Of a stretch of DNA of 64,000 bases, positions 5,463-63,708 are shown in pieces. A program made the translations under genes and the position numbers. The notes beneath the pieces were generated by a model that saw nothing but the letters and a program-made list of their open reading frames with translations, ran no database searches and was not told the origin of the DNA. Source of the DNA: an uncultured Candidatus Saccharibacteria bacterium (GTDB lineage Bacteria; Patescibacteriota; Minisyncoccia; Phycocordibacterales; CAIRYW01); contig CAZKPS010000001.1 of assembly GCA_964554765.1 (NCBI GenBank), positions 72,786-136,785 of the forward strand. Reading direction: 5' to 3'. How positions within the stretch are numbered: position 1 is the first letter of the stretch; the number at the start of each line of letters is the position of its first letter.

Positions 5463-5490
5463 TTGACAAAATAGAGTGATTTGCTACAAT
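5463..5490 (+). promoter_or_regulatory. Sigma-70-like promoter (TTGACA-16-TACAAT) for a leaderless TrmB-family gene
   Basis: The -10 element ends about 8 nt before the ATG at 5499. Confidence 0.35.
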
Positions 5491-15007: not shown

Positions 15008-15065
15008 CGATAATATTATATCAAAGAATTGTATATAGTATATGGCATATGTACATTAAAAAAAT

Positions 15066-15104
15066 AAAATACCCTGCAACTTTGTTGCAGGGTATTTTAT
15101 TTTT
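15066..15104. terminator. Terminator between the Cys-rich protein gene and pilB
   Basis: Hairpin accctgcaac-tttg-ttgcagggt with a T-run after it and an A-run before it. Confidence 0.6.
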
Positions 15105-23861: not shown

Positions 23862-24593
23862 TTATTTTCTAGAATTTTGCCACAGGTATGCAAATATCTT
23901 TCGGAATGCATCAGAAATAATTTTGTTCTTAAGAATCATTCCCATCGGCTCCTTTTTATCAAAAGCCACAATTGCAAGCTTATCGTCAAAAATATTAATC
24001 TCAATCCCCAGATCCTTGAACACATCGGAGAATCTCATATCACGAAGAAGCTCTTTAGCTCGAGTTTTATCTCTCTTGCCATATTTATCCATCGGAAGCA
24101 AACTCTTGACCGATACCCCAGCTTTCACTCGATACGGAAAATAATCTTCATCAAAAAAATCATTCATAGTCTCATATGCTTTTTGATAGTCAGTGATAGC
24201 GAGGATATGCTTCTCATTATTCTCTCTCCAAGTCTCACCGTAGAGTTTCTTTACCGCCTCTTTCCCTTCAAAATACCGAATACCCGAATGTAGTACTGGA
24301 TACTTTTTCTTTTTGAACACCCCTCTAAGTTTTTCCGATTCTTCCTCGAGAGATTTTATCTTTCTTTTAGACCACACCTCAAACTCCTCCTCCGAAATAG
24401 ATTGAAAAAGTGTCGTATCATTTTTCTTGATCTGACTTACAAGCCCCTTCTCTTCGAGAAGAGTGAGCGTGTGATAAAGTGCTGTTCGATTGAGACTCGT
24501 GTCCTTGGCGATCTGGGATACGGGAGATGGTCCGAAACTTGCGAGAGCTTCAAACACCGCTCTCTCCTTTTCACTCATGAGTTCGTTATTCAT
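23862..24593 (-). CDS. TrmB-family transcriptional regulator
   Basis: N-terminal wHTH (VFEALASFGPSPVSQIAKDTSLNRTALYHTLTLLEEKGLV), C-terminal domain. Confidence 0.7.
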   Translation of the reverse strand: MNNELMSEKERAVFEALASFGPSPVSQIAKDTSLNRTALYHTLTLLEEKGLVSQIKKNDTTLFQSISEEEFEVWSKRKIKSLEEESEKLRGVFKKKKYPVLHSGIRYFEGKEAVKKLYGETWRENNEKHILAITDYQKAYETMNDFFDEDYFPYRVKAGVSVKSLLPMDKYGKRDKTRAKELLRDMRFSDVFKDLGIEINIFDDKLAIVAFDKKEPMGMILKNKIISDAFRKIFAYLWQNSRK

Positions 24594-26741: not shown

Positions 26742-27170
26742 CTATGATCGATACTCTCTATACCTGATTGCCTTCTGATGACCTTTGCACTTTAGGTCAA
26801 AGGTTTTATTGTGACCAAAAGGAGATGTATACACCTCAACATTTGGCAGCAATTCGTGCGCAGATGAAACAATCTGTTTCGAAAGTTCAAGAGCAACATC
26901 GGGTGGGGCATAGCTGTGGGATATGTGCCCAAAAGCAGCAATGACCAATCGCATTGCACCGAGCTCAAAGAAAAATTTTTGTACATCCTTGAGTAATCGT
27001 TTTTTCTGTTTTTCTCCATCACCTTCCTCTACGTGAAAGAGGACAACCAAACATTCCTCGACCAGGAGTGATGAATTTTCAGGTGATATGATTTCGGGTG
27101 CTTGAATATATTCCGAAGAACTAACCCAAGAAAAACCAAAGCTTAAAGCGTCAAAAAACTGTGCCTTCAT
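26742..27170 (-). CDS. Stand-alone archaeal-type ThrRS editing-domain / DTD2-like D-aminoacyl-tRNA deacylase homolog
   Basis: Starting from MKAQFF (142 aa), the C-terminus reads SPFGHNKTFDLKCKGHQKAI and the middle reads LVVLFHVEEGD...AAFGHISHS. This resembles the archaeal ThrRS N-terminal editing domain (...APFGYYKAFKISCKGHP...). The 5' extension in the track ORF is discounted. Confidence 0.55.
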   Translation of the reverse strand: MKAQFFDALSFGFSWVSSSEYIQAPEIISPENSSLLVEECLVVLFHVEEGDGEKQKKRLLKDVQKFFFELGAMRLVIAAFGHISHSYAPPDVALELSKQIVSSAHELLPNVEVYTSPFGHNKTFDLKCKGHQKAIRYREYRS

Positions 27171-27479
27171 AGTGATAAGTGTGTTTAAAAGAACATATTC
27201 TGTAGAGGTACAGAAATAAAAAACCCTCCGGATCGCTCCGAAGGGTTTTGTGCCTTTAACAAAGATATCATTCGCAATAAAGCAAAAAACCGTTCGGAGC
27301 GATAAAACCAACGGCTTGCCACCACTTTGTGTTCTGAATATTGAATTTGCTTATTTTTTGAATCATTTGATTTTGTGTTTTGATTTCCTTATATCCCTCA
27401 TTAGTATTCACCCTTCAAATCAAAACTTATTTATGATATTATCACCATACTAGTATAGTAATACATAAAAGTCAAATCT

Positions 27480-29133: not shown

Positions 29134-29931
29134 TTATTTTTCCTCAGTTTTACCGTCCAACCTTTTCGCCTCTTTCCACGCTAGTTCAAAAAGTTTTTTG
29201 AGAGCATCAGCAATCTCTTCACTTTCTATAATAATACCAAGCTCCTCTCTCCAGGATGCAATCATCACTTTGTTATCATAAATTTCTATATCAGGAGAAA
29301 TGTCAAAAAGTTCTTTTGGTACAAGAGCGAGCTCTCGAGCCTCAAACGGATTCATCTTTTTTCGCTCAAGTGCCAACTCTGTTGCAGGAACAATACCCCG
29401 AACAAACAAACCCTTCGCCGCCCGTCTCCTGTAATAGTCAGGAAAATATCCTTTGAGAGTTTTGTGCATATCATCATAGGAAGCCATTGCCACAAAAGGT
29501 CCAGATGCAGTCAAGGTATCTTCATATACTTTTTTCATTCCCTCAATACCTTCATAAAATTTTACTTGTGGCCGAGTACCGACTTTATACATGGACTTAA
29601 GCTCGGGCAATAGTAATTGTGCATACCTATAGTCCTCTTCTTTTCGCTCAATATTGTGACGCAGAAATTTTAATATCTGTTCAGGATCCTCACATCGATA
29701 CTCTTGTTTTGGTTCTTTCCCAGAAATACTCACAAGACCCTTTTGTGCCAGGCTTGCCAAAATATCGTAGGCACCCGTTCTATTAATACCAGCCCTTTTT
29801 GCAATCTCACTTACTTTACCTTTTCCTATCCCTAAGAATGAAATGTAGAGCTCAGACTCTTTTTTGTTGAGACCCAGCTTTTGTAAAGCGTTTTGAAAAG
29901 TTCCACTCTGACCTTCTTCGTATTTTGTCAT
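29134..29931 (-). CDS. TrmB-family transcriptional regulator (close paralog of 62920..63708)
   Basis: wHTH (SEIAKRAGINRTGAYDILASLAQKGLVSISGKEPKQEYR). The C-terminal IYDNKVMIASWREELGIIIESEEIADALKKLFELAW is shared with the paralog. Confidence 0.75.
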   Translation of the reverse strand: MTKYEEGQSGTFQNALQKLGLNKKESELYISFLGIGKGKVSEIAKRAGINRTGAYDILASLAQKGLVSISGKEPKQEYRCEDPEQILKFLRHNIERKEEDYRYAQLLLPELKSMYKVGTRPQVKFYEGIEGMKKVYEDTLTASGPFVAMASYDDMHKTLKGYFPDYYRRRAAKGLFVRGIVPATELALERKKMNPFEARELALVPKELFDISPDIEIYDNKVMIASWREELGIIIESEEIADALKKLFELAWKEAKRLDGKTEEK

Positions 29932-31443: not shown

Positions 31444-32241
31444 TTATTCGTATTTCGTTCCTGTCCAACTCAATTCAAAAATCATCTTCATAAGTCCGTG
31501 AATTGTTGGATCTTCGATAATGACTCCTGTTAACTTTTCTTTACCGAGGTTTATGATCGAAACATTTTTTTCACCATAGATTGTAATCTCGGCCTTGTAG
31601 GGGAATTTCTCTGCCGGGATGAATCGTGCATTAGGCATCAATTCTTCTTTGAAATCACCGTACGATCTCTCAACAAAGGTCTTGTCTATGTTTGTATCTG
31701 GGAAAATAACTCTTGAACTAATTCCTTTCTGTTTCTTTGTCTTAATATAATTTCTAAAAAAGTCTCTCGGCACCTGTTCCTCCACCTCTTGAACATTCGC
31801 CCACGCGAGCATTTCATATGGCTTCGATACATTAATATGTGTTGCATAAATATCAAGCACACCCTCAATACCTTCATAATACGTAATCTTTGGTTTATCG
31901 GCCGCTCCCAATAACCCCTCGAGATCAGGAAGAATCCTCTGGACATTCTCAATCTCATCTTGGATGATAGACATTTTGGATTTGGCATACCGCACGAGCT
32001 TGGTTGGACTCTCGAGTTGATAGAATTGTTTATTCTTCTTTTCTATCTCATTCACTACCCCCTTTACTGACATTTGGGTGAGCAACATATAGACCGTACT
32101 TCGATTAAGTCCAGTGTATTCTGCAATCTTTGACGGATATGCTCCTCCGAGCTCAAGGAGTGCTACATATATTAAAGACTCTTTGTCAGAGAGACCTGAC
32201 TTTTGGAGCTTTTTGAGGAGATTTTCGTGTTTTATGCTCAT
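31444..32241 (-). CDS. TrmB-family transcriptional regulator
   Basis: wHTH (IYVALLELGGAYPSKIAEYTGLNRSTVYMLL) plus a C-terminal domain. Confidence 0.75.
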   Translation of the reverse strand: MSIKHENLLKKLQKSGLSDKESLIYVALLELGGAYPSKIAEYTGLNRSTVYMLLTQMSVKGVVNEIEKKNKQFYQLESPTKLVRYAKSKMSIIQDEIENVQRILPDLEGLLGAADKPKITYYEGIEGVLDIYATHINVSKPYEMLAWANVQEVEEQVPRDFFRNYIKTKKQKGISSRVIFPDTNIDKTFVERSYGDFKEELMPNARFIPAEKFPYKAEITIYGEKNVSIINLGKEKLTGVIIEDPTIHGLMKMIFELSWTGTKYE

Positions 32242-34710: not shown

Positions 34711-34766
34711 AATCCTAGATTTTATAAGAAAGTAAACAAGAACCAAGTATTCAAGTAAACAAACAA

Positions 34767-34803
34767 ATGCAGCGCGCCCTACGGGCGCGCTGCATTTGTT
34801 TAG
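34767..34803 (+). terminator. Rho-independent terminator after clpP
   Basis: Hairpin atgcagcgcgccc-tacg-ggcgcgctgcat followed by TTGTTT. Confidence 0.7.
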
Positions 34804-45046: not shown

Positions 45047-45781
45047 CTACTCACTTTTCTCCCAGAGCATCTTCCAAACCGATCTGAGACTCTCGGCAAT
45101 TGATTGATTTTTGATGATGATTCCCATCTCGTCTTTAGTTGAAAGCATCGCCACTTTATCGTCGAAGATCATAATTTCATTATTTATCCTGTGGTTTTCT
45201 GGTATCAGACGCACCTCTCTCAAAACTTCCTCCCCTTCTCTCTTATCCTGTTCCCCCACTTCACCACCTGGAGCGAATCCTCGAACCCTAATCCCCTTCT
45301 TAACCCTCTGCCTTACATAATTATCTACATACTCCCCACCAAAATACTCCTTCACCTCTTTGGAATTTGTAAAAGTCAAAATCTCTCCCTTTGATAATAA
45401 ACTTTCTTCATAGATTTGCTTAAGACCCTCCCTTGTACTGACAGTTGTGATTCTTGGCCTTTTCTCATTATTTTTATTTTTGACCAAGTCAACTAGACTC
45501 TCCTCGAGTATCCCGAGCCCCTCTTTATGTTTCTTTATCAGAATCTGAGGATTGAGCGCCCCAAAGTACATAACACCCTTCATCTTAAACCCTGACACAA
45601 TACCTCTACTCGAAAGGCGCTTCAGGACCTCAAAATTAGTAATCCGATTTAGCTTTGATTCTCTAGCAATCTGACTATTTGTTGCCGAACCGAGCCCAAG
45701 GAGTGCTAAATAAACCGCCGCCTCGTTCTCCGAGAATCCTAATCCACCAAGTTCTTTCCTGATATCAATCTGCATATTCAA
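45047..45781 (-). CDS. TrmB-family transcriptional regulator
   Basis: wHTH (AAVYLALLGLGSATNSQIARESKLNRITNFEVL). The C-terminal MGIIIKNQSIAESLRSVWKMLWE is shared with the family. Confidence 0.7.
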   Translation of the reverse strand: MNMQIDIRKELGGLGFSENEAAVYLALLGLGSATNSQIARESKLNRITNFEVLKRLSSRGIVSGFKMKGVMYFGALNPQILIKKHKEGLGILEESLVDLVKNKNNEKRPRITTVSTREGLKQIYEESLLSKGEILTFTNSKEVKEYFGGEYVDNYVRQRVKKGIRVRGFAPGGEVGEQDKREGEEVLREVRLIPENHRINNEIMIFDDKVAMLSTKDEMGIIIKNQSIAESLRSVWKMLWEKSE

Positions 45782-45935
45782 ATTCTTGTTTTTGACTTAT
45801 AATCTTTGACTATCCTTTAGTTGTAATATTTTTCTACAGTAAATTAATTATATATTATATTGTATATTAGTCAATTTTAAGTATTTTCGTAATATAAATT
45901 TACAATTATGTTTTCACGTGTAACACTGAAGCTCT

Positions 45936-46271
45936 ATGAATGCGTTCTTTTACATTAGCCTGTACATGCTTTCGATTTACTCCATCTTTCGAAACTTTGT
46001 GTCCGCCAGACATAAATTTAAGGTGCAGATAGCTGGGGTGCGATTAATTGATTTTACCAAGACAGAACAGATGCATGTCGATCAAATTGGCTACTGTCAG
46101 CGATTCAGCACTGGATCCGACCCCTCCCGAGACAGATATGAGGTATGGCAGGAGCTTCTACCTTACTTCAGGAAAGCGATGCTCAACTTCATACTCAATA
46201 CAACCATTGATATGGTGGTTTACACGCTTGTATTTAAAATACTAATTTCGGTCATTGAATATGTCTCGTGA
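45936..46271 (+). CDS. Hypothetical protein
   Basis: 111 aa ORF followed by a plus-strand terminator. No domain recognised. Confidence 0.35.
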   Translation: MNAFFYISLYMLSIYSIFRNFVSARHKFKVQIAGVRLIDFTKTEQMHVDQIGYCQRFSTGSDPSRDRYEVWQELLPYFRKAMLNFILNTTIDMVVYTLVFKILISVIEYVS

Positions 46272-46280
46272 GTCACCCTT

Positions 46281-46311
46281 CACCCACATGTCCAGCATGT
46301 GGGTTTTTTAA
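46281..46311 (+). terminator. Rho-independent terminator
   Basis: Hairpin cccacatg-tccag-catgtggg followed by TTTTTTAATT. Confidence 0.6.
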
Positions 46312-46727
46312 TTCCCAGATTCCAGGATTTGATTCTCCAAAACTCTTACTTCAGCTTTTTTATTGACTTGGTCAATATAGATGGTTATCACATCAAACTG
46401 CCAGCTTTTCACATGAAACACTGATATATAGACCTGGATAACGCGAGCTAGTTTCTTTAACTTAGTGCTATGTAGATTATCTTCCGGTCTAATGTTTTCA
46501 CCCGAGCGACTTCCTACGGAACTTGAAACGGGCATGTGTGAACCGTATTTGATTTCACATGAAACACTTTTGACCTCTATAAAGTGAGTTTTATCACCTT
46601 TTTCACAAACAATGTCTATTTCCCCATATGGTTTCCAATAATTCCTATGTAATATCTCGTACCCTTTGCCTATCAGGTATTTTTCTACCAAATCCTCCCC
46701 TAGTCTACCAATTTTGTTACCTATCAA
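46308..46727 (-). CDS. yraN: YraN-family (UPF0102) endonuclease
   Basis: GEDLVEKYLIGKGYEILHRNYW...GEIDIV...FIEVKS. Confidence 0.75.
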   Translation of the reverse strand: MIGNKIGRLGEDLVEKYLIGKGYEILHRNYWKPYGEIDIVCEKGDKTHFIEVKSVSCEIKYGSHMPVSSSVGSRSGENIRPEDNLHSTKLKKLARVIQVYISVFHVKSWQFDVITIYIDQVNKKAEVRVLENQILESGN

Positions 46728-47175
46728 GTGTTTTACTTATAATTTCTCTTATAAGAGACATCTTAGACTTGTCGTTTACTACCGCACGTATATAACTCTC
46801 ACTATCGTTAATCTTTGTTAGAAATTCTATGGGCACCCACTTAAACTCAGTATGTTCGTCACTCAGCTTCACCCTGTTACCCAAACTAGTTTCATATGAA
46901 ACATAAGTAAGACGGATAACCCTGATCTCAGGCTTTATAATGTCCTGTGCAGCAACAATTGCTAGTATTTTAGGATTTAAACCAGTCTCCTCTTTGATTT
47001 CTCTCTTTAGGTTATCCTCAAGAGTGGATTTAGGATCTATCCTCCCTCCTGGAATATCCCACAAATTTTCAACATTTGGATATTTAACGGGGTTTCGCTT
47101 AATGACTAGGATATTGCCCTCTCTGTTGAAAATAAGTGCCTTTACCCCTACCTGAAGTGGATTTGATTGTTTCAT
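46717..47175 (-). CDS. NUDIX hydrolase
   Basis: Nudix box variant GGRIDPKSTLEDNLKREIKEETGL, in which REIKEETGL fits REUxEExGU. It overlaps yraN by 11 nt. Confidence 0.75.
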   Translation of the reverse strand: MKQSNPLQVGVKALIFNREGNILVIKRNPVKYPNVENLWDIPGGRIDPKSTLEDNLKREIKEETGLNPKILAIVAAQDIIKPEIRVIRLTYVSYETSLGNRVKLSDEHTEFKWVPIEFLTKINDSESYIRAVVNDKSKMSLIREIISKTLDR

Positions 47176-47685
47176 GTGAAATATTATACCTCCAAACTAG
47201 CTAGCATGTAATGTTGATAAGTCTAAGATCTATCCTTTGTGCCTGAGCATAGCTCCTGTTCCACATGAAATGTGCAAGAGAATAAACCACAGTACCCACA
47301 TGGCACGGAGCCGTATATTCCAGGGTTTTCATGTGTAACGAAATTTAGAGTGTTTCTTATGAAACGTTTTGTGGGTAAAACCCATAAAGTACACTAAATT
47401 CTGATTATATCCATACAAAATAAGGGTATTCTAGAAAAGTCCGATAAAATAGTTGTCTTTTATAGATTTGTCTTATACACATATCCACCGAGTTATCCAC
47501 AGTTTGTTGATAAATATGGGTGATTTCTGGGGAGAAAGAGAGGAAAAGGACAGGACGGATTAGGTCCTGTAGGTCTCAACAACTAGGGGAGAAAATCGGT
47601 CACAAGTTGTCCGTTTGCCGTCGCGAACAGACACTCGCAACTCCGGCTCGTCCGTTTTGTGTGCTCACAAAACATGACTGCGTCC

Positions 47686-47790
47686 TTCGATTCTCCCACG
47701 CAAAGTGCGTTTGGCATTTTGCTTACTCGCACAAAAATAGCAAAAACCTGGGTCAAATTGACCTAGGTTTTTGCTATTTTTGTGCGAGTA
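47686..47790 (+). repeat. Mirror copy of the tRNA-Gly(GCC) 3' end, with a 26-nt insertion, plus a ~31-bp palindrome that includes the tRNA acceptor 3' strand
   Basis: ttcgattctccc + [acgcaaagtgcgtttggcattttgct] + tactcgcac, followed by the palindrome tactcgcacaaaaatagcaaaaacctgggtc / gacctaggtttttgctatttttgtgcgagta. The right arm of the palindrome is the tRNA 3' end. Confidence 0.65.
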
Positions 47791-47853
47791 GGGAGAATCG
47801 AACTCCCGTCTCATCCTTGGCAAGGACGTGTTCTACCACTAAACCATACCCGC
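47783..47853 (-). tRNA. tRNA-Gly (anticodon GCC), CCA not encoded
   Basis: Acceptor gcgggta/tactcgc (one G-U pair), anticodon arm cgtcc-TTGCCAA-ggatg and T-arm gggag-ttcgatt-ctccc. Coordinates are anchored to track ORF 47520..47867. Confidence 0.75.
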
Positions 47854-48195
47854 TTTATTTGAAGTAGTATATAGGAAAATGTGAAAAAGGGAAGGGGGAA
47901 GTGGAAGAAAACGCTGGGTAGGAATCTCGAACCTTACAGGTTCAGTACACCTTTTGGTGATTTTGTTTCCTTAATCAATCACAAAATCAACTCAAAAGGT
48001 TCTCGAATCCAGCAGCGGAAGGAACTCGGTCGTTACACGACCAGTATCCTGATTGGAAATTTTATTTCGCAAGCTTATAAAATTTGCTCAATCGGGCTTC
48101 GAGTCCTGCACCGGCAGGAACTCTCGGCTTACAGCCGCAGTACAGGTTTCCCATTTTCTCGGATGAGTACATCCTCAAAAATATGGGAGAACCTT

Positions 48196-48288
48196 TTCGA
48201 GTCCTGCACGCAAGCGCCCCGCGCTTGCTCGGGTGCACAAAATAGAAAAACCGCCCCATAAAAGGCGGTTTTCTATTTTGTGCACCCG
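48196..48288 (+). repeat. Mirror copy of the tRNA-Arg 3' end, with a 19-nt hairpin insertion, plus a ~24-bp palindrome that includes the tRNA acceptor 3' strand
   Basis: ttcgagtcctgcac + [gcaagcgccccgcgcttgc] + tcgggtgca, followed by the palindrome gggtgcacaaaatagaaaaaccgcc / ggcggttttctattttgtgcaccc. The right arm of the palindrome is the tRNA 3' end. Confidence 0.65.
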
Positions 48289-48352
48289 GCAGGACTCGAA
48301 CCTACAAAAACGGTTCCGAAGACCGTTGTGATATCCATTTCACCACGGGTGC
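48281..48352 (-). tRNA. tRNA-Arg (anticodon UCG), CCA not encoded
   Basis: Acceptor gcacccg/cgggtgc, D-arm gtga-aatggata-tcac, anticodon arm acggt-CTTCGGA-accgt and T-arm gtagg-ttcgagt-cctgc. Coordinates are anchored to track ORF 47881..48261. Confidence 0.75.
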
Positions 48353-48410
48353 GTAGTAAGTACTATACATCAAATTATGAAAAAGTAAAAATATAATGTA
48401 GAATTAAGGT

Positions 48411-49895
48411 ATGAAGAACGATACTCTCAATATCCCAAAGGAAGTTTCACATGTAACAGAAACACTTGAAAACGCTGGTTTTGAAGCATATTTAGTAGGC
48501 GGCTGCGTACGAGATATGTTGCTTGGTCGCAAGCCAAAGGATTGGGATGTGACCACAAATGCTACACCAGAACAGATTGTTTCATTGTTTCCAAACACTT
48601 TTTATGAAAATGACTATGGAACAGTAGGGATAGTTAATGATGAGGAGGGGATAGACCCGACACTTAAAGTAGTAGAGATAACTCCATACCGAATTGAAGG
48701 AAAGTACTCAAACAACAGACATCCAGACGAGGTGAAGTGGAGTAACAATATCCTCGACGATCTCGATAGAAGAGACTTCACGGTCAATGCCATAGCAGTG
48801 CGAAGCAAAGCGGGCAAGAACGCGATTGTAGACCCTCACAATGGGCAACAGGACCTAAAGGACAAACTAATCCGAACAGTAGGGAACCCTCATGAAAGAT
48901 TCCAGGAAGACGGACTACGGATACTTCGATCAGTTCGAATCGCGACTGATCTTGATTTTGATATTGATCCTGCTACCGAAAAGGCAATTATAGAGGAAGG
49001 GGGTCTTTTGAAGAATATATCTGTTGAGCGTGTCCGAGACGAGTTCTCAAAGATTTTGATGTCCGATAGACCTTCGTTTGGGATTGAGCTCTGTGAAAAA
49101 ACACGGATTCTTCAATACTTTTTGCCAGAACTCCGTGATGGAATAGGGTGCGGACAGAATCAGGCGCACGCATTTGATGTATTTACCCACCTTATGAAGA
49201 CTCTTGAGCACGCTGCAAAGAAAAAATACACATTTGAGGTACGTCTTGCAGCCTTGTTTCACGATATAGGAAAGCCAGCAACAAAGAAACCTTCGACTAA
49301 ACGTGATGAACCTACTTTCTATGGACACGATGTTGTAGGAGCACGAATAACTGAGAAAATACTCAATAGACTCAAATTTCCCAAGAAAACCATTGATATG
49401 GTTGTGAAACTCGTGCGTTGGCATATGTTTTTCTCTGATACAGAAACTATTACGCTCTCTGCAGTACGAAGAATGATACGAAATGTAGGGGAAGAGAATA
49501 TCTGGTATCTTATGGATGTACGCGCTTGTGATCGTATAGGGACAGGTAGACCAAAGGAAAGTCCATATAGACTACGTGTGTACCACTCAATGGTGGAGGA
49601 GGCAATGAGAAACCCAATCTCTGTTGCCACACTGAAGATTAATGGAGCGCGGCTTATGGAAATCACCAAGATGCCTCCTGGACCGAAAATAGGGCAGATA
49701 CTACTTATTCTTCTTGAGGAAGCGCTCGATAATGCAGATATAAATACAGTTGAATATCTAGAAAAAAGAGCATTGGAACTTGCAGAACTAGATGAAAAAG
49801 AGTTAAAAATATTAGGTGAAAAGGCGAAAGCTCGTAAGGAAGAAGTGGAGGAAAAAGAAATAGGAAAAATTCGGAATAAACACCATGTAAAATAG
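48411..49895 (+). CDS. cca: CCA-adding tRNA nucleotidyltransferase with a C-terminal HD domain
   Basis: GGCVRDMLLGRKPKDWDVTT polymerase-beta-type head and HD motif LFHDIGKP. It lies directly downstream of three CCA-less tRNA genes. Confidence 0.85.
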   Translation: MKNDTLNIPKEVSHVTETLENAGFEAYLVGGCVRDMLLGRKPKDWDVTTNATPEQIVSLFPNTFYENDYGTVGIVNDEEGIDPTLKVVEITPYRIEGKYSNNRHPDEVKWSNNILDDLDRRDFTVNAIAVRSKAGKNAIVDPHNGQQDLKDKLIRTVGNPHERFQEDGLRILRSVRIATDLDFDIDPATEKAIIEEGGLLKNISVERVRDEFSKILMSDRPSFGIELCEKTRILQYFLPELRDGIGCGQNQAHAFDVFTHLMKTLEHAAKKKYTFEVRLAALFHDIGKPATKKPSTKRDEPTFYGHDVVGARITEKILNRLKFPKKTIDMVVKLVRWHMFFSDTETITLSAVRRMIRNVGEENIWYLMDVRACDRIGTGRPKESPYRLRVYHSMVEEAMRNPISVATLKINGARLMEITKMPPGPKIGQILLILLEEALDNADINTVEYLEKRALELAELDEKELKILGEKAKARKEEVEEKEIGKIRNKHHVK

Positions 49896-50024
49896 AGAGG
49901 CTTGCCCCGTAGTAAATTTGTAATCAAATTTTGCTTTGGGGTAGAAGAGAGGGAAATTGGGCAGATACAGAGTAAGTATCATGTGAAATAGTAGTTGATA
50001 GCCAATAGTCATTAGTTTATAAAA

Positions 50025-50056
50025 AAGCGATACCCTTTGGGCACCGCTTTTTTTGC
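50025..50056 (+). terminator. Imperfect terminator hairpin after cca
   Basis: agcgataccc-ttt-gggcaccgct with two mismatches, followed by TTTTTTT. Confidence 0.4.
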
Positions 50057-50669
50057 TCTGTGTTTATTCTATATAATATATTCAAAATTCAGTATTCCAC
50101 TCAAGAAAAGGAAAAGACCGCTTCCGCGGCAGGGATCCTACATTTCTCGCGCCAAACATGAAAATTTCTGGCACCTATAGTTCTCTTACCTCAAAAACGG
50201 CCTTTGTTTATCGATTTTCCTCTAATATATGTTTTAGAGTTGTTGTTTCTGGTTTCACGAGAAACACACTTTCGATATAAAGGAGTTTATAAATCAATGG
50301 TTTTTTGGCTAATACAAGTGATTGTGAGATATCAAGTTTAAAGAATTTCCTTTTTATAATACTACGCGAACGTAGTTGAAAGAGATATATTTTGAGAAAT
50401 CAATTTCTACTTATATCAATCCAATTCTTTACTTTTAACCTAAACCTTTAGATTTACATTGCTCAAAGAACTTTCTCGCATTTCTAGAGGTGCTTTAAGT
50501 ATTCATAAGACGACTTGTACCAATCTTCGTCTTGTTTAAACCAAAAACATACTCTTCGTTTATGAATTACAATGTTGACTTCAAAAGTCCGAGACAGTAA
50601 TTTCATCAAACATATTTTTGCGACTGAGATAATTATATTTTTTTATTAAAGACATGTAAAGGACATACC

Positions 50670-50711
50670 TGTGGATAACAATGTCTTTTATAAAAGACAT
50701 TGTTATCCACA
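50670..50711. repeat. Near-perfect 20-bp palindrome containing two inverted DnaA-box consensus 9-mers (TGTGGATAA / TTATCCACA)
   Basis: tgtggataacaatgtctttt at / aaaagacattgttatccaca. It sits inside a ~900-bp AT-rich stretch (49900..50807) with no ORFs. Confidence 0.6.
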
Positions 50712-50807
50712 AAAAATTTTAGGTGATAATAGTTAATTAACCAAATGAAAATGCATTGCAATCAATGGTTGCAATGCATTTTCTGAATTCATTCAATATA
50801 CAATATT

Positions 50808-51647
50808 CTATATTCCAACTTCTAGCATTACTGGGCAATGATCAGATCCCATCACTTCATTTAAAATTTCAGCTTTCTTAATTTTTTTCTCAAGTCTTTT
50901 TGATGCAAAGAAATAATCTATTCTCCATCCGACATTTCTCGCTCTCGCTCCGCCCCAAGCTGTCCACCAAGTATAATTACCTCCTTCTTTATTAAATAAT
51001 CTGAATGTATCTACAAAGCCGGCATCTAGAATATTATCCACCCCTTCTCGTTCTTCCGCAGTAAATCCGTGTTCACCTTCGTTTTCTTTTGGACGAGCGA
51101 GGTCTTGTACTGTGTGAGCAACGTTCAGATCACCGCAGAAAATAACAGGTTTTTTGACCTCAAGTTCTTTACAGTATTCAAGAAACGCCGGATCCCATTT
51201 TTTGTAGCGAAGCTCGAGGCGACTCAAATTATCTTTGGAATTAGGAGTATAAACATTTACTATATAGAATTCATCGAATTCTGCTGTAATCACGCGCCCC
51301 TCAGTATTAGGATTACCATATGAATCAGTGTCGAATTTGTATTTATGAGCGATTTCTTTTGGAAGTCCAAGGATTATTGAAATAGGCTTGATTTTAGTAA
51401 ATATTGCCACACCACTGTAGCCTTTTTTCTCTGCTGAATTCCAATATTCTTCATATTCTGAAAGATCTATCTCTGCCTGACCTTGCTGTGCTTTAGTCTC
51501 TTGAAGGCATATGATATCTGGTTTGTATTTAGCAACAGATGGAAGAAAAAGTCCTTTATTGTGGACTGCGCGAATACCGTTTACATTCCATGAGATGATT
51601 AGCATACGAATAGTATATAGTATGTGGTATATGGTATACAAACACAA
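50808..51647 (-). CDS. xth: Exodeoxyribonuclease III (likely start MLIISWNVNG at ~51605)
   Basis: WNVNGIRA, QETK and the C-terminal SDHCPV motif. Confidence 0.85.
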   Translation of the reverse strand: MCLYTIYHILYTIRMLIISWNVNGIRAVHNKGLFLPSVAKYKPDIICLQETKAQQGQAEIDLSEYEEYWNSAEKKGYSGVAIFTKIKPISIILGLPKEIAHKYKFDTDSYGNPNTEGRVITAEFDEFYIVNVYTPNSKDNLSRLELRYKKWDPAFLEYCKELEVKKPVIFCGDLNVAHTVQDLARPKENEGEHGFTAEEREGVDNILDAGFVDTFRLFNKEGGNYTWWTAWGGARARNVGWRIDYFFASKRLEKKIKKAEILNEVMGSDHCPVMLEVGI

Positions 51648-53222: not shown

Positions 53223-55481
53223 ATGCCAGATAAAATTCCACCACCAGATGAAATAAATGCAGGATCACCAGAATCTCAACCTGGGGTAGATGTTGAGACC
53301 ATTCTAGAGGAAAAAATTGCCCCTATTAGAAGTGCAATTGCTAACGGAAGACCTATTGATGTTGAAGATTACAGAGCATTTTTTGCTGCTATACCTGACA
53401 AAGGCACCGTAAGCGATGATGATTATGAAATTGCAAGGGAATACGCAGAAAATCTCTTGAAGCTTTTTCGTAGTGAGAATGTCGAGATTAAGATATCGGA
53501 TACTCAAACTAAGAAATTTAATGAGCTTGAAAAGGAGCGTAAGGAACGAGAGGAAAAGCAGAAGGAAGATCTTGAAAATTTTCTAGAGCTTAAGAGAGAA
53601 ATAACTGGTTATATTCATAACAACCAATTTATTCCTTTTGCTCTCGCAGTAAAAGCAGAATCATTACTAGAAGATATTCCAGAGGAGGAAAGGGATGAAT
53701 TCGATATATTGATGAATCAAGACAAGGTAAGAATCATTCAAAAAAGTAATAGTCGACAAATCACTTGGAATGACTTCTTGATTAGAAATTCGCCAGAGAT
53801 GATTGAGATGAAAGAACTCATAACAAAACTTCAAGAGATAGTTAATGATAAAAATCCAAATCCAATTCCCGTTGAATATCTGGAAAGTCTTCATGAATTT
53901 TTAAAGACAGATGATGATCGTGTTGTATCTCTGCTTTTGCGCAACCAGATCCTTTCTGGTATGAAAAATGCAACAAAGAAAAAACCAATCTTGGTCACCT
54001 TAGCTGATGGAAATACAGTAGAAGTAAAATCTGATGTATTTGACTCGGCTGATAAATTACCAAAGCCAGAAACTCCTGCCCCAGCAAAAATCGAGCCCAC
54101 TCCAGCTGCTACACCTGAACCAACCCCTGCTACTGCAAAAGTCACAGCCTCTTCAACAGCATCTGTTGCAGAAGCACCAGTCAAACCAGAAGCTACACCA
54201 GCAGTAGAGCCTCCTCTCAAGATAGACCCAGAAACATATAAAAGACAGCTTGCACTAGAACTTGAGTCAATTGAGATGCATACAATTGAGCACATCCTCG
54301 AGGAAATAGTAGTAGAGTTCAGTAAACTAAGTAAAAAAGATAAAGAAGTATTTAAAGAGCTTCTAGAAAAAATATCTCCTTCTTCTCACGATAATCACGG
54401 AGACCACCACGAAGAAGAGCACGATACTCATCATAACGAACATGATAGTGGACATACGCACAGTACAGAACACGAGAAATCTCCTGCAGAACTCGCAGAG
54501 ATAGTAAGTGGATTCCTAAAAAAACTTGAGTCCAGTGATGAGCTTGAGATGAGTGATGCAACACGTCAATCACTCAAAGGTATGTTCTACAATCTCAGAG
54601 TAGAGGTAAGAAAAGCAGAAATAAAAGCATTAGATGAAGAAAAACTATTCAAAGATGACAAAGAGAAACTGAAAATATTTGAAGCAATTTCAAAATCAAA
54701 AAGGGAAAGTGAAGCGGCATATAATGATGAAATAAATATAATAGAGTCAAGACTTGATGAAGTGGAAGGTGACGAAAACATTCAGGATAGCTACCGCATT
54801 ATTTTACTTAGAGAGAAATTCATAAAAATCTTCGAGTACAACAAGAAGATGCGTGACTTCCTATCTAGAGAAATTGAGGAGCTGCGAAAAGCTCTCGAGG
54901 AGAAGAAAGCTGAACTCGAAGAAAAAATCAGAATCCGAGATGCGGCAGAAGAAGAGATGAGAGAAGCTGTCCGAAGCGGTGATAAGGAAAGAATCAAATC
55001 TACTACAGAAGTCTACAAAAAAGCACAGAAAGATGTTGATGAATTGGAAATAATTGTTCATGGATTGCAACTCAAAGTAAATGGTAAAGTCGCAGTACTT
55101 GAATCAGTAACACACAAGATTGAGGAAATAGAAGGAAAAAAGGCGGATATAGAAAAAAGTGACGACTTAGCAGAGGTTAGAGAAATAATTGAGGAAGTAG
55201 AAAAACTTTCAAAAGAAATCGACCACGAGTTAAAACCAGGTTTGCACGGAGATCATGGACACGAGCACGGACATCACCATGATGAGCCAAAGAAATCTCT
55301 ATTTAAATCGACAGTGACGTGGAGTCTCGTAGGTGGAGGGTTATTAATAGGGTTGTTCAATATTTTTGCAACAAATCTCTACAATACACTTCGAGGAGTA
55401 AAGGCAAGCGGAGGAGGAGGTGGTGGTCATGGTGGAGGACATGGAGGTGGCCACGGGCACGGTGGAGGCGGACACCATTAA
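53223..55481 (+). CDS. His-rich coiled-coil protein with a C-terminal TM anchor and a Gly/His tail (function unknown)
   Basis: 752 aa with long Glu/Lys coiled-coil segments, a Pro/Ala/Thr linker and three His clusters (HDNHGDHHEEEHDTHHNEHDSGHTH; HGDHGHEHGHHHDE; GGGHGGGHGGGHGHGGGGHH). There is a single TM helix near the C-terminus. Confidence 0.6.
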   Translation: MPDKIPPPDEINAGSPESQPGVDVETILEEKIAPIRSAIANGRPIDVEDYRAFFAAIPDKGTVSDDDYEIAREYAENLLKLFRSENVEIKISDTQTKKFNELEKERKEREEKQKEDLENFLELKREITGYIHNNQFIPFALAVKAESLLEDIPEEERDEFDILMNQDKVRIIQKSNSRQITWNDFLIRNSPEMIEMKELITKLQEIVNDKNPNPIPVEYLESLHEFLKTDDDRVVSLLLRNQILSGMKNATKKKPILVTLADGNTVEVKSDVFDSADKLPKPETPAPAKIEPTPAATPEPTPATAKVTASSTASVAEAPVKPEATPAVEPPLKIDPETYKRQLALELESIEMHTIEHILEEIVVEFSKLSKKDKEVFKELLEKISPSSHDNHGDHHEEEHDTHHNEHDSGHTHSTEHEKSPAELAEIVSGFLKKLESSDELEMSDATRQSLKGMFYNLRVEVRKAEIKALDEEKLFKDDKEKLKIFEAISKSKRESEAAYNDEINIIESRLDEVEGDENIQDSYRIILLREKFIKIFEYNKKMRDFLSREIEELRKALEEKKAELEEKIRIRDAAEEEMREAVRSGDKERIKSTTEVYKKAQKDVDELEIIVHGLQLKVNGKVAVLESVTHKIEEIEGKKADIEKSDDLAEVREIIEEVEKLSKEIDHELKPGLHGDHGHEHGHHHDEPKKSLFKSTVTWSLVGGGLLIGLFNIFATNLYNTLRGVKASGGGGGGHGGGHGGGHGHGGGGHH

Positions 55482-59804: not shown

Positions 59805-59830
59805 ATCAAAAAGTAGAAATCAAAAATAAT

Positions 59831-59866
59831 AAATCCGCGGCACCTAAAGGTGCCGCGGATTTTTAA
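59831..59866 (+). terminator. Terminator after pnp
   Basis: 12-bp stem atccgcggcacc / ggtgccgcggat followed by TTTTAAT. Confidence 0.7.
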
Positions 59867-59867
59867 T

Positions 59868-60719: not shown

Positions 60720-61505
60720 ATGGAAAATGTATTAAAACAATTGGGTTTAAATGAAAAGGAGATTTTAGTCTATAAATCACTCTTGGAAAGAGGTGCTTCG
60801 ACATCATCTTCACTTGCAAATGTTATTGACTTGCCACGACAGACTATCTACTCAATCCTTCAAAAACTATGTGATGAAGGAGTAATTGAGAAAGGCCCGT
60901 GGAAAGGGGCACACAAATTCATTGCCGACCCAACCAATCTTTCATCAATAGTGAGATTTAGGCAGAAAAAACTTACCCAAATAGGAAATACAATTGAGGA
61001 ATTGATGCCAGAACTTCTCACAATAACAAAACTCAGAGCAAACCGAAAACCTTCGGTTCAGTATTATGATGGGGTATTTGGGTTGAAGCGTCTTTTTGAT
61101 GAGATCATTGAACAATACAAAAGAAAAGAAGATACTATGTTTCGAGGATTCGGAATTAATTATTTTGAAAATACAGACATACAAGAAATTTTAAATGATT
61201 TTGTTAGAGAGAGATATAAATATGGTATAAAAACTCACTTACTTATTGGTAAAGGGGGGAATGATTTTGGCATTACGATAGATGGATCAACAACTTTAGG
61301 AAGAGAAGTCCGTAGTATAAATATGGAAGCACAAAATGCTGGCATCTACCTAGTAGGAGATCGTATTTATTTATTTTCTTACGAGGATGATGTGGGAATT
61401 ATGATTGAACAGAAACTTATTGCACAATTATTAAAAAATATTTTCGATTTGGAGTGGGATAAGGCAAAAGAGCTTGATAAAGAAATAAGAAGATTAGAGA
61501 AGTAA
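60720..61505 (+). CDS. TrmB-family transcriptional regulator
   Basis: wHTH (ILVYKSLLERGASTSSSLANVIDLPRQTIYSILQKL). The C-terminal ...WDKAKELDKEIRRLEK is identical to 62920..63708. Confidence 0.7.
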   Translation: MENVLKQLGLNEKEILVYKSLLERGASTSSSLANVIDLPRQTIYSILQKLCDEGVIEKGPWKGAHKFIADPTNLSSIVRFRQKKLTQIGNTIEELMPELLTITKLRANRKPSVQYYDGVFGLKRLFDEIIEQYKRKEDTMFRGFGINYFENTDIQEILNDFVRERYKYGIKTHLLIGKGGNDFGITIDGSTTLGREVRSINMEAQNAGIYLVGDRIYLFSYEDDVGIMIEQKLIAQLLKNIFDLEWDKAKELDKEIRRLEK

Positions 61506-62919: not shown

Positions 62920-63708
62920 ATGGAAAACAAAGGGAATTTCGTTGGTGCCCTCATCAATATGGGTCTCCCAGAAAAGGAGGCTGCAGTTTATGTATCTCTC
63001 CTCGGGCTGGGACTTGCAACAGTAACCGAAATTGCCAATAAATCAGGAATCAATCGAACAACTGTCTACGATATCCTTTCTTCACTATCCCAGAAAGGAC
63101 TTGTGAGCATTTCGGGTAAAGAACCAAAGCAAGAATACAGATCTGAAAATCCTGATAAGCTACTAACATATCTCAAAAACGAACTTGAGCGAAAGGCTCA
63201 AAGTGTGAGGTATGCAGAGCTCATGCTTCCGGAACTTAAATCAATACACAAAATAGGTGAAAGACCTCGAATCAAATTTTATGAAGGTGAGGAAGGTTTG
63301 CGAGAAGTATACGAAGACACTCTCACATCAGAAGAAACTATTTTGGCATATGCCGCAGTGGATGATGTGAACAAAGGGATTGCAAATTATTTCCCCAAAT
63401 ACTATAAAAGACGCGCTGCAAAAAACATTCCTATCCGTGCTATATTTCCCGATACTCCCGTGGCAAGAGAACGATCGGACCTTGATAAAGAGGAGAGGCG
63501 GGAAAGTCTTTTGGTGCCATTTGAAAAATACAGCTTTACTCCCGAAATAAATATCTATGACAACAAAGTTATGATCGCATCGTGGAGAGAAAAGCTTGGA
63601 ATAATTATTGAAAGCGCCGAGATTGCAGATGCCATGAAAAAAATATTTGAACTCTCATGGGATAAGGCAAAAGAGCTTGATAAAGAAATAAGAAGATTAG
63701 AGAAGTAA
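62920..63708 (+). CDS. TrmB-family transcriptional regulator (close paralog of 29134..29931)
   Basis: wHTH (AAVYVSLLGLGLATVTEIANKSGINRTTVYDILSSLSQKGLVSISGKEPKQEYR). The C-terminus is identical to 60720..61505. Confidence 0.75.
   Translation: MENKGNFVGALINMGLPEKEAAVYVSLLGLGLATVTEIANKSGINRTTVYDILSSLSQKGLVSISGKEPKQEYRSENPDKLLTYLKNELERKAQSVRYAELMLPELKSIHKIGERPRIKFYEGEEGLREVYEDTLTSEETILAYAAVDDVNKGIANYFPKYYKRRAAKNIPIRAIFPDTPVARERSDLDKEERRESLLVPFEKYSFTPEINIYDNKVMIASWREKLGIIIESAEIADAMKKIFELSWDKAKELDKEIRRLEK

Follow-up and report, generated by a model that had tools for sequence, protein, structure and literature searches.

DnaA boxes on either side of a CCA-adding enzyme gene mark a candidate chromosomal origin region in a Paceibacteria genome

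The 912-bp gap at 49896-50807 of the window (the whole 64-kb stretch of DNA that was analyzed) is best explained as the right-hand part of a chromosomal replication-origin and partition region of a Paceibacteria (Ca. Taylorbacteria-like) genome, with a DnaA site and a candidate RNA gene, a reading to which we assign a probability of roughly 55%. In the proposed arrangement, two DnaA-binding sites would flank a tRNA-Gly / tRNA-Arg / CCA-enzyme block. The left site, a cluster of five to six boxes at 47212-47513, appears the likelier place for DnaA oligomerization and replication start, and the right site would consist of one conserved high-affinity box at 50670-50678. A predicted promoter beside the right box would drive an ORF-free structured RNA, running on the minus strand from 50625 to 50107 and occupying most of the gap, with DnaA, probably as two molecules oriented head-to-head, binding just upstream of the -35 element. 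Such binding may couple initiator occupancy to RNA transcription, and may also add a flanking DnaA-loading site to the origin. We infer that DnaA binds, and that the origin fires, at this locus. The preliminary description had proposed that the gap resembles a replication origin; the locus indeed looks like a chromosomal origin region with respect to skew, gene orientation and parS, but the gap itself does not hold the main box cluster.

The gap is bounded by the stop codons of the CCA-adding enzyme gene (48411-49895, plus strand), which separates the two DnaA-box sites, and of an Exo III-like nuclease gene (xth; 50808-51647, minus strand), a convergent synteny retained in 64 of 80 relatives. 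These relatives are related Paceibacteria loci of 21 kb each, which, given their conserved gene order, are only partly independent. Both genes have a terminator hairpin in the gap, that of the CCA gene at 50021-50053 on the plus strand (AAAAAAGCGATACCC / GGGCACCGCTTTTTT), and that of the Exo III-like gene at 50747-50783 on the minus strand, followed by ATTTTCATTT on that strand. Between the two DnaA-box sites are also tRNA-Gly(gcc) at 47782-47853 and tRNA-Arg(tcg) at 48280-48352, both on the minus strand, the latter divergent from the CCA gene. A mobile-element or prophage origin was rejected, since the core synteny is conserved, with UPF0102 / tRNAs / CCA / xth / xer-like / NYN / PNPase maintained in 55-64 of the 80 loci.

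The gap had been portrayed as an AT-rich gene desert. Indeed, no other stretch of the window that is free of ORFs of 80 or more amino acids is as long; the AT-richness of the gap is however ordinary for intergenic DNA of this genome (GC of 31.9%, compared with 21-42% in intergenic and 40% in coding DNA) and was therefore discarded as a signal, and about 520 of its 912 bp form a conserved, ORF-free promoter-to-terminator transcription unit under purifying selection.

In the window, cumulative GC skew reaches its minimum at 47-53 kb, and gene orientation diverges in the same interval. The origin reading thereby withstands, on local data, the check proposed initially, a skew minimum elsewhere beside dnaA. 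The strand-corrected side effect on GC skew in the window amounts to +0.065, with the best breakpoint at 46-49 kb. Congruently, 4-fold degenerate sites of 731 genes from 41 loci (the window and 40 relatives) yielded a strand-controlled side coefficient of +0.067 (95% CI 0.045-0.087), and, with the CCA gene start as zero, the best pooled breakpoint lies between -2.5 and +0.5 kb. Bulk skew is higher to the right than to the left in 32 of 36 loci. Less favorably to an origin, plus-strand genes alone exhibit a weak GC3-skew shift (+0.022, positive in 21 of 34 loci). Negative skew persists 10 kb past the left end of the window, where an S12-S7-EF-G operon is co-oriented with leftward replication, and the left replichore-like skew is unbroken for at least 58 kb. 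All these skew data are local, covering the 64-kb window, 10 kb to its left and 21 kb per relative. A terminus (dif), as prompted by the neighboring Xer-like recombinase, was rejected, since both the direction in which skew switches and the divergence of gene orientation are those expected of an origin.

That the window contains neither dnaA nor dnaN, as already pointed out in the preliminary description, was confirmed by Pfam scans of about 50 ORFs and a motif scan; neither gene is present in a further 10 kb leftward, nor, by motif scan, within 10 kb in any of the 80 relatives. A second, dnaA-linked box cluster may exist elsewhere in the genome. Among the features that characterize oriC, the locus thus displays a box cluster (47212-47513) and, on local data, a skew and orientation switch, and it lacks adjacency to dnaA/dnaN, which is frequent and not obligatory.

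Sites resembling parS cluster at the same place. Seven parS-like 16-mers with at most three mismatches are present in the window, compared with 0.39 expected, and all seven are located within 45910-50266: GTTTTCACGTGTAACA at 45910-45925 (three mismatches to TGTTTCACGTGAAACA), CTTTTCACATGAAACA at 46405-46420, GATTTCACATGAAACA at 46551-46566, AGTTTCATATGAAACA at 46888-46903, TGTTTCATGTGAAATA at 47168-47183 (two mismatches, overlapping the start of a NUDIX gene), one at 48443-48458 within the CCA-adding enzyme gene, and one at 50251-50266 within the candidate RNA gene. In the relatives, the interval from -2 kb to +1 kb relative to the CCA gene is where sites with at most two mismatches accumulate, among them perfect TGTTTCACGTGAAACA and one-mismatch copies, and none was detected in about 650 kb further right. 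As for the parS/ParB clusters near known oriC (consensus TGTTNCACGTGAAACA), multiple copies of a 16-bp palindrome are hence gathered near the putative origin, within about 4.4 kb around the DnaA-box sites. Unlike known parS, the sites of the window are degenerate (2-3 mismatches) and neither parA nor parB is found in the window, ParA/ParB motifs being absent from the related loci as well; we infer ParB binding.

The densest DnaA-box cluster of the window lies outside the gap, at 47212-47513, with the core array TTATACACAtATCCACCgagTTATCCACAgttTGTTGATAA. Five boxes with at most one mismatch, at 47212(-), 47370(-), 47473(+), 47493(+, exact) and 47505(-), are packed into 302 bp, and none of 300 Markov simulations reached five per 350 bp; a two-mismatch box is located at 47481(+). 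The array tGTCTTTTATACACAtATCCACAgagTTATCCACAGTT of this cluster is conserved in about 40 relatives. Across the 80 related loci, 84 exact boxes occur in the 219 kb within 1.5 kb of the CCA gene (0.383/kb), compared with 19 in 917 kb elsewhere (0.021/kb), an 18-fold enrichment, with none inside the CCA gene itself. An exact box is present upstream of the gene in 39 of 65 loci and downstream in 38 of 71, and both DnaA-box sites reside in conserved contexts across the relatives. The earlier caveat that the consensus of this lineage could differ can be set aside, as canonical TTATCCACA is the box conserved here. In the window, exact boxes number three where 0.76 are expected, a count reached by 4 of 100 shuffles and with two of the three belonging to one palindrome; the count alone is only marginal, and significance comes from the conservation in relatives.

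This palindrome, made of two inverted DnaA-box 9-mers, and the further exact TTATCCACA at 47493-47501 had both been reported in the preliminary description, and both were borne out. The palindrome is perfect over 42 bp (50670-50711), with two 21-bp arms and no spacer (TGTGGATAACAATGTCTTTTA / TAAAAGACATTGTTATCCACA). It comprises a conserved left box (TGTGGATAA at 50670-50678, reading TTATCCACA on the minus strand), an inverted pair of the 9-bp repeat M2 at its center (TGTCTTTTA / TAAAAGACA, 50682-50699), and a genome-specific right box (TTATCCACA at 50703-50711); relative to the RNA start predicted near 50625, it spans positions of approximately -45 to -86. As a hairpin, it attains -28 kcal/mol (z about -7 to -8). 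The left box is kept at this position in about 29 relatives, with or without a long palindrome, and the right box is exclusive to this genome (0 of 80 relatives). An identical independent contig stops at the palindrome center, which leaves the assembly of the window as the sole source for the right arm.

The closest relatives possess 42-bp palindromes at the same position, in which the TAAAGGACA repeat is kept at the center and the arms differ. Two of them, L002 and L003, harbor a one-mismatch box outside their palindrome, and in L004 and L005 the box is accompanied by a single M2 copy and no palindrome. In this genome, the sequence flanking the conserved M2 dyad has probably turned into a perfect 42-bp palindrome, thereby creating the second, inverted DnaA box. 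The A site of plasmid R6K, a single-stranded DnaA-box hairpin that assembles a primosome, is similar in that its DnaA box belongs to the stem of a stable hairpin formed by a long palindrome; the present palindrome is however not known to become single-stranded or extruded, and its second box is not conserved.

With its two exact high-affinity boxes at the local skew and orientation switch, the gap itself could be the core oriC, with DnaA binding the palindrome and melting adjacent AT-rich DNA within 49.9-50.8 kb. The right box is moreover followed by a 12-bp spacer, four NTN trios (GTG ATA ATA GTT) and AT-rich DNA, and an unstable 30-mer is found at 50065-50094 (99.8th percentile). We nevertheless regard this as quite improbable. 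The trio-bearing box is the one missing from all relatives, the AT content is ordinary, and a conserved transcription unit fills most of the gap. A scan of the gap for degenerate boxes, as had been suggested, returned only the two of the palindrome at up to one mismatch, the real, denser cluster being at 47.2-47.5 kb, and the pooled skew data favor a breakpoint to the left of the CCA gene, on the side of that cluster, which argues against the gap as origin core. Finally, the whole cassette of box, M2 and promoter is inverted as a unit in L056 and a subgroup of relatives, which is hard to square with a box and an unwinding element that keep a fixed arrangement with respect to the left cluster.

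Nor did the search for an AT-rich unwinding element in these 900 bp, proposed at the outset, reveal a convincing element or DnaA-trio array. The duplex-stability scan detected nothing of note beside the boxes, with the least stable 30-100-mers of the window lying elsewhere; the least stable 30-mers near the sites, at 47394 (97.8th percentile) and 50065, are not adjacent to a box. A DnaA-trio array of the basal unwinding system is defined by three or more NAN trios no further than 16 bp from a box (PMC8287927). Such patterns accompany 13 of 39 conserved upstream boxes and 14 of 29 downstream boxes, as compared to 91 of 400 random positions (33-48% versus 23%), which is not clearly above background. 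In the window, a 2-bp spacer separates the exact box at 47493 from three trios, and a 12-bp spacer lies between the genome-specific box at 50703 and its four.

Our preferred reading of an origin and partition region has counterparts among bipartite origins (Helicobacter pylori oriC1-dnaA-oriC2; Bacillus subtilis incAB-dnaA-incC), where two box sites are likewise placed a few kb apart with genes between them, at a GC-skew and orientation switch, and with boxes fitting canonical TTATCCACA. Those origins are split by dnaA, whereas the sites at 47.2-47.5 and 50.67-50.71 kb are split by tRNA-Gly, tRNA-Arg and the CCA gene; furthermore, no unwinding element or DnaA-trio array is assigned here, and one of the sites comprises just one conserved box, fused to a promoter. 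The latter is reminiscent of E. coli oriC with its DnaA-box-controlled mioC and gidA promoters, where a high-affinity box is also situated just upstream of a promoter at the origin edge, and where the origin is equally unlinked from dnaA. DnaA acts as a transcription factor at promoter-proximal boxes, for example at P. aeruginosa gidAB-parAB (PMC13438810). In contrast to mioC and gidA, the transcript here would not be an mRNA but a structured RNA devoid of ORFs. Since the cassette is inverted in some relatives, the RNA does not keep a constant direction with respect to the main box cluster, and it is therefore unlikely that its transcription activates the origin.

E. coli datA and DARS1/2 and the B. 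subtilis DnaA-box clusters also feature near-consensus boxes in intergenic DNA away from dnaA, and it is conceivable, yet unlikely in our view, that the present locus is of this kind, titrating or reactivating DnaA and placing tRNA or RNA promoters under DnaA control, with the true oriC beside dnaA elsewhere. Congruent with such a role, dnaA and dnaN are missing from the window and from every related locus, the conserved right box is tightly linked to a promoter as in DnaA-regulated genes, and neither an unwinding element nor a DnaA-trio array is demonstrated. Those clusters do not, however, coincide with a skew switch or a parS cluster, whereas this locus, on local data, does. Both the window and the pooled relatives show the strand-corrected skew switch and the orientation divergence at the locus, the left replichore-like skew is uninterrupted over its at least 58 kb, and exact boxes are otherwise rare in the 917 kb of flanking DNA.

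Patescibacteria (CPR), the ultra-small bacteria to which this genome belongs, constitute a large share of bacterial diversity and are almost entirely uncultured, and our literature search found no description of their origins. The signature outlined here, none of it linked to dnaA, would combine M2 repeats and a parS cluster with TTATCCACA arrays on both sides of tRNA-cca. If conserved, it would anchor the orientation and validation of metagenome-assembled genomes, help to interpret read-depth estimates of growth rate, and support in vitro reconstitution of initiation with recombinant DnaA.

At the right-hand site, the conserved order in relatives is box / M2 / -35 / -10 / CAGA, and the right box is always accompanied by a sigma-70-type promoter about 10 bp away and several M2 copies. 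In the window, two direct M2 copies at 50646-50665 on the plus strand (TTAAAGACA at 50646-50654 and TAAAGGACA at 50657-50665) overlap the -35 element and the spacer. Among relatives, the first 1 kb downstream of the CCA gene shows a 10-25-fold enrichment of M2 and the upstream side a 5-10-fold one, and, as read from the sequence, five of its nine positions are shared with the DnaA box.

Conceivably, though with less than even odds, M2 (TGTCCTTTA / TAAAGGACA) rather than the DnaA box is the functional unit, with a dimeric lineage-specific protein or low-affinity DnaA binding the dyad and the tandem copies over the -35 element, and with the site either acting as the operator of the RNA gene or assisting the origin as an accessory site. 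Besides the enrichment on both sides of the CCA gene and the resemblance to the DnaA box, this possibility draws on the M2-M2 dyad forming the conserved palindrome center while the outer arms vary (L002, L003, L066, L027, L054), and on the tandem copies beside the box at 11-bp spacing. On the other hand, it comes without a candidate binding protein, the conservation may partly be that of the promoter given the partial overlap with the -35 hexamer, and the covariation of the arms could stem from template-switch homogenization instead of selection.

The same palindrome might merely terminate transcription in both directions, or insulate the RNA promoter from the Exo III-like gene, its DnaA boxes being incidental. 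This genome has many terminators that are long perfect palindromes, the palindromes of L002 and L003 match the definition of an intrinsic terminator (42 bp with a GC-rich core and flanking A and T tracts, directly after the xth stop and without a DnaA box), and a lenient scan listed the palindrome of the window (50713..50668) as terminator-like on the minus strand, in agreement with its hairpin energy. In the window hairpin, however, just 6 of the 20 pairs are GC and an uninterrupted U tract is missing, and a canonical terminator at 50747-50783 already serves xth. In addition, the left box is retained in about 29 relatives regardless of a long palindrome, as exemplified by L004 and L005, and the M2 dyad at the palindrome center turns up repeatedly at both DnaA sites in places that are not terminators. 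We consequently deem a pure terminator very unlikely, although the hairpin could help to stop read-through from the Exo III-like gene. The fallback readings of the preliminary description, a regulatory DnaA site, an operator or a terminator, are hence each supported in part.

Returning to the origin region as we interpret it, the remainder of the gap is dominated by the unannotated candidate gene for a structured, multi-helix noncoding RNA of about 520 nt (50107-50625, minus strand), with a predicted start near 50625 and a terminator at 50130-50107. Its putative sigma-70-type promoter (50632-50660, minus strand) matches 11 of 12 consensus positions, with the -35 TTTACA at 50660..50655, a 17-nt spacer and the -10 TATAAT at 50637..50632; on sequence grounds, the promoter is predicted to be active and the RNA to be produced. 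The RNA would contain the conserved motif GTTCTTTGA and a 13-bp long-range helix AAGGCCGTTTTTG / CGGAAGCGGTCTT. Terminators have the orientation that suits this transcript, and in the consensus fold the stems covary, 12 of 43 pairs displaying compensatory changes. Identity in the RNA region is 0.79 (L002) and 0.74 (L003), compared with 0.52 and 0.41 at 4-fold sites, indicative of purifying selection; across subgroups, the sequence is only patchily conserved. Within a streamlined genome of 0.5-1 Mb, this 'gene desert' experiences selection as strong as that on a protein-coding gene. Small proteins were rejected as the content of the gap, with no ORF conserved in any frame among 30 relatives and indels between close relatives that are not multiples of three.

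Known RNA families were also considered. At gathering score, Rfam 15 identified only tRNAs in the window and 10 relatives, and at E<=10 on the gap of the window, L007 and L018 it yielded nothing consistent, merely chance hairpin matches to miRNA and sRNA models on short stretches. The RNase P RNAs of CPR are diverged and can score very low (PMC8172020), and a match of the candidate RNA below about 12 bits may exist. RNase P RNA was nonetheless rejected, as the universal CR-I motif GAGGAAAGUCC is absent by eye and P1 and P4 cannot form. A tmRNA was similarly rejected, since ARAGORN was negative on the window and 22 loci, no GGGG...CCA acceptor pairing was seen by eye, and candidate tag frames are inconsistent between relatives.

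In size (350-520 nt), covarying helices, invariant blocks, and a promoter and terminator of its own, the candidate is comparable to large RNAs such as RNase P RNA, tmRNA, OLE, ROOL and raiA, differing in the above lack of any Rfam, tmRNA or CR-I signature. A speculative and rather unlikely extension is that it represents a new class of large (about 350-520 nt) structured Paceibacteria RNA, physically and functionally tied to the replication origin, with M2 as the site of an origin factor. Such an RNA might, for example, regulate initiation through titration of DnaA or ParB, through R-loop or primer formation, or by reporting DnaA activity to the cell cycle. If true, this would be a rare new class of large RNA, with a possible direct link from initiator activity to an RNA effector. 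As a separate observation, the RNA carries motifs that resemble E. coli M1 RNA in their order, namely CAGUCGC, GGGUAGGC, ACAACCC..GCUUA and GGUCAGUUUC.

The gap between the CCA-adding enzyme gene (48411-49895, plus strand) and the Exo III-like nuclease gene xth (50808-51647, minus strand) extends over 912 bp (49896-50807), from stop codon to stop codon, and no other stretch of the window free of ORFs of 80 aa or more is as long. It holds a perfect 42-bp palindrome (TGTGGATAACAATGTCTTTTA / TAAAAGACATTGTTATCCACA) at 50670-50711, both being located as in the preliminary description. The portrayal as an AT-rich gene desert needs revision: a GC content of 31.9% is ordinary for intergenic DNA in this genome (21-42%), and the gap contains a predicted promoter, a terminator and a conserved candidate RNA unit without conserved ORF. 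Exact TTATCCACA occurs three times in the 64 kb, at both palindrome ends and at 47493-47501, with 0.76 expected by chance, a count that alone is only marginal. The densest cluster of boxes with at most one mismatch is the upstream site, where five fall in 47212-47513; in 300 Markov simulations, five per 350 bp was never attained. Inside the gap, the same threshold recovers only the two boxes of the palindrome.

For comparison, we exploited 80 related loci retrieved with the CCA enzyme from metagenome-assembled genomes of Patescibacteria, labelled mostly Paceibacterota, Parcubacteria or Ca. Taylorbacteria, with CCA-enzyme amino-acid identities from 93% down to about 51%. The gene order UPF0102(-), tRNAs(-), CCA(+), xth(-), xer-like(-), NYN(+), PNPase(+) is maintained in 55-64 of these, arguing that the locus is core chromosome, and a mobile element was rejected on the same grounds. 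A 752-aa ORF without Pfam domain (53223-55481, plus strand), which separates the conserved xer-like gene from NYN, has a homologue in a single one of the 80 loci. Within 1.5 kb of the CCA gene, exact TTATCCACA is present in 84 copies (0.383/kb) across the 80 loci, versus 19 copies (0.021/kb) in their other 917 kb, and none inside the CCA gene. The DnaA site is hence real and conserved, in the neighbourhood originally guessed, and boxes are found on both flanks of the CCA gene: upstream in a conserved array, tGTCTTTTATACACAtATCCACAgagTTATCCACAGTT, which mostly has tRNA-Gly(gcc) on one side and tRNA-Pro on the other, and downstream in a second conserved context, AAAAGACATGTAAAGGACA-N2-4-TGTGGATAA-N3-TGTCCTTTATAAAAGACA, just ahead of the xth 3' end.

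Regarding the palindromic box pair, only the left box (50670-50678) is conserved, the second being specific to this genome. The palindrome centre is an inverted pair of a 9-bp repeat, M2 (TAAAGGACA / TAAAAGACA). In relatives, this repeat is enriched on both sides of the CCA gene, 10-25-fold downstream and 5-10-fold upstream. In L002 and L003, the nearest relatives, the box carries one mismatch (TGTTGATAA) and precedes a 42-bp palindrome that differs from that of the window and has the M2 dyad at its centre; the arms differ again in loci L066, L027 and L054, and L004 and L005 possess the box and one M2 copy without palindrome. Judging from these differing arms, it is the dyad and the hairpin potential that recur. 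The L002/L003 palindrome resembles an ordinary bidirectional terminator following xth. The xth gene of the window is served by a separate terminator (50747-50783), and the palindrome there (-28 kcal/mol) is AT-rich, with GC pairs at 6 of 20 positions and without a clean U tract. This genome has many long, perfectly palindromic terminators; the intergenic ones are typically perfect or near-perfect, with 15-22-nt arms (15060-15104, 2878-2926, 34761-34801, 59826-59867 and others), and have A and T tracts on both sides, and are therefore bidirectional.

Immediately left of the palindrome, a near-consensus minus-strand promoter (TTTACA, 17 nt, TATAAT; 50660..50632) is present, with two tandem M2 copies overlying the -35 element, and the unit it may drive closes with a hairpin and T run oriented for the minus strand (50130..50107). 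The order DnaA box, M2 copies, -35, -10 and CAGA is conserved in relatives. Moreover, in L056:8718-9162, a locus of 86% CCA-enzyme identity, and likewise in a subgroup (loci L027-L065), the complete cassette, from DnaA box and M2 through promoter to RNA, has flipped its orientation with respect to the CCA gene; thus, the box belongs with the promoter and the cassette moves as one unit. No ORF is conserved in the gap between the window and its relatives. Invariant blocks shared by the relatives follow in the order CCGAGG, GTTCTTT, GGGTAG, CAACCC..GCTT, GGTCAGT, a UGUG-loop hairpin, CTAACC and the terminator. The stems of the candidate RNA covary among relatives, and the consensus fold of the window's clade, including a 13-bp long-range helix, has compensatory changes in 12 of its 43 pairs. 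Identity of the region is 0.79 to L002 and 0.74 to L003, whereas 4-fold sites in the neighbouring CCA gene reach 0.52 and 0.41, and the supposed desert is thus under about the same constraint as a coding gene. Rfam, tRNA and tmRNA searches gave no match for the candidate RNA. A diverged RNase P RNA was weighed as well, given the poor scores of CPR RNase P RNAs (PMC8172020), and rejected since the universal CR-I motif is absent.

Cumulative GC skew drops over the first 47 kb or so and climbs past about 53 kb, with genes mostly on the minus strand to the left and on the plus strand to the right. Because skew follows gene strand, third-position skew in the window was regressed on strand and side, yielding a side effect of +0.065, with the break best placed at 46-49 kb. 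Pooling 41 loci and 731 genes at 4-fold degenerate sites yields a side coefficient of +0.067 (bootstrap 95% CI 0.045-0.087), which remains +0.048 when the closest relatives are left out together with the right-hand pair of conserved minus-strand genes. When the breakpoint was scanned with locus fixed effects, the best fit fell at -2.5 to +0.5 kb from the CCA gene start, which is the upstream box array and not the gap. The left-arm skew persists in 10 kb more recovered left of the window, where the S12-S7-EF-G operon is co-oriented with leftward replication. A terminus was ruled out, as both the sign of the switch and the divergence in gene orientation are origin-type. The proposal of an origin gains from the local skew switch and the box conservation, with breakpoint and main box cluster falling left of the CCA gene rather than in the gap.

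Palindromes first noticed as TTTCAYGTGAAA fit the ParB-binding consensus TGTTNCACGTGAAACA. All seven window sites with at most three mismatches lie within 45910-50266 (4.4 kb), with 0.39 expected in 64 kb. In relatives, sites with at most two mismatches, perfect copies included, are concentrated around the CCA gene (-2 kb to +1 kb) and absent from about 650 kb further right. Bacterial parS sites as a rule cluster close to oriC. The window encodes no parA or parB. One parS-like site is located within the CCA gene (48443) and another within the candidate RNA gene (50251), the latter also found in L002. A short motif, (T/G)AGCCAT(A/T)TT, borders the upstream DnaA-box array on both sides in relatives (e.g. 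L011:~30-190) and directly adjoins parS-like sites beyond the RNA terminator (e.g. RNA 3' flank of L016).

Our best reading is that 45.9-50.8 kb would constitute the origin and partition region of the chromosome, with the main DnaA-box cluster left of the tRNA-cca block, and the gap as a probable flanking module, where M2 repeats and one conserved DnaA box, joined by a second box in this genome, sit at the putative promoter of a conserved unannotated structured RNA. We infer DnaA binding, promoter activity, the existence of the RNA and origin firing at the locus from these patterns. The main rival is a DnaA regulatory locus that is no origin, the true oriC residing beside dnaA elsewhere: the 64-kb window encodes, as already recognized, no dnaA or dnaN, no unwinding element was found next to either box site, and DnaA-trio patterns (defined as in PMC8287927) at the conserved boxes are not clearly above background. 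In the literature searched, Patescibacteria origins are not described. The least stable 30-mer within the gap (50065-50094; 99.8th percentile of the window) is flanked by the convergent terminators of the candidate RNA and the CCA gene, and the closest DnaA box is some 580 bp away.

The CCA gene adjoins two tRNA genes. The 3' acceptor ends of tRNA-Gly(gcc) and tRNA-Arg(tcg) each build a long palindrome with their own 3' trailer (47716-47798 with 41-nt arms at 90%, and 48230-48288 with 20-nt arms at 100%, respectively), and an ordinary terminator hairpin is enclosed in each; the trailer could keep the tRNA 3' end covered ahead of processing and CCA addition. The tRNAs are separated by 426 bp (47854-48279) versus 2-90 nt in most relatives, and this spacer is built of tRNA-like fragments in opposite orientation, such as TTCGAGTCCTGCAC at 48098 and 48196; another, TTCGATTCTCCC, is at 47686-47697. 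ARAGORN and Rfam called neither tRNA nor intron in the spacer. Contig breaks are frequent at the locus: the identical independent contig L001 stops in the palindrome centre, and eight MAG contigs (L002, L004, L006, L010, L020, L040, L044 and L071) begin in the tRNA region, within 500 bp ahead of the CCA gene. Elsewhere in the window, a free-standing protein with an archaeal-type threonyl-tRNA synthetase editing domain (PF08915) is encoded at 26742-27311 (minus strand), and at least seven TrmB-family helix-turn-helix regulator paralogues (5481-6260, 23862-24593, 29134-29931, 31444-32241, 45047-45781, 60720-61505 and 62920-63708) occupy 64 kb of a very small genome, with one more just left of the window (L083).
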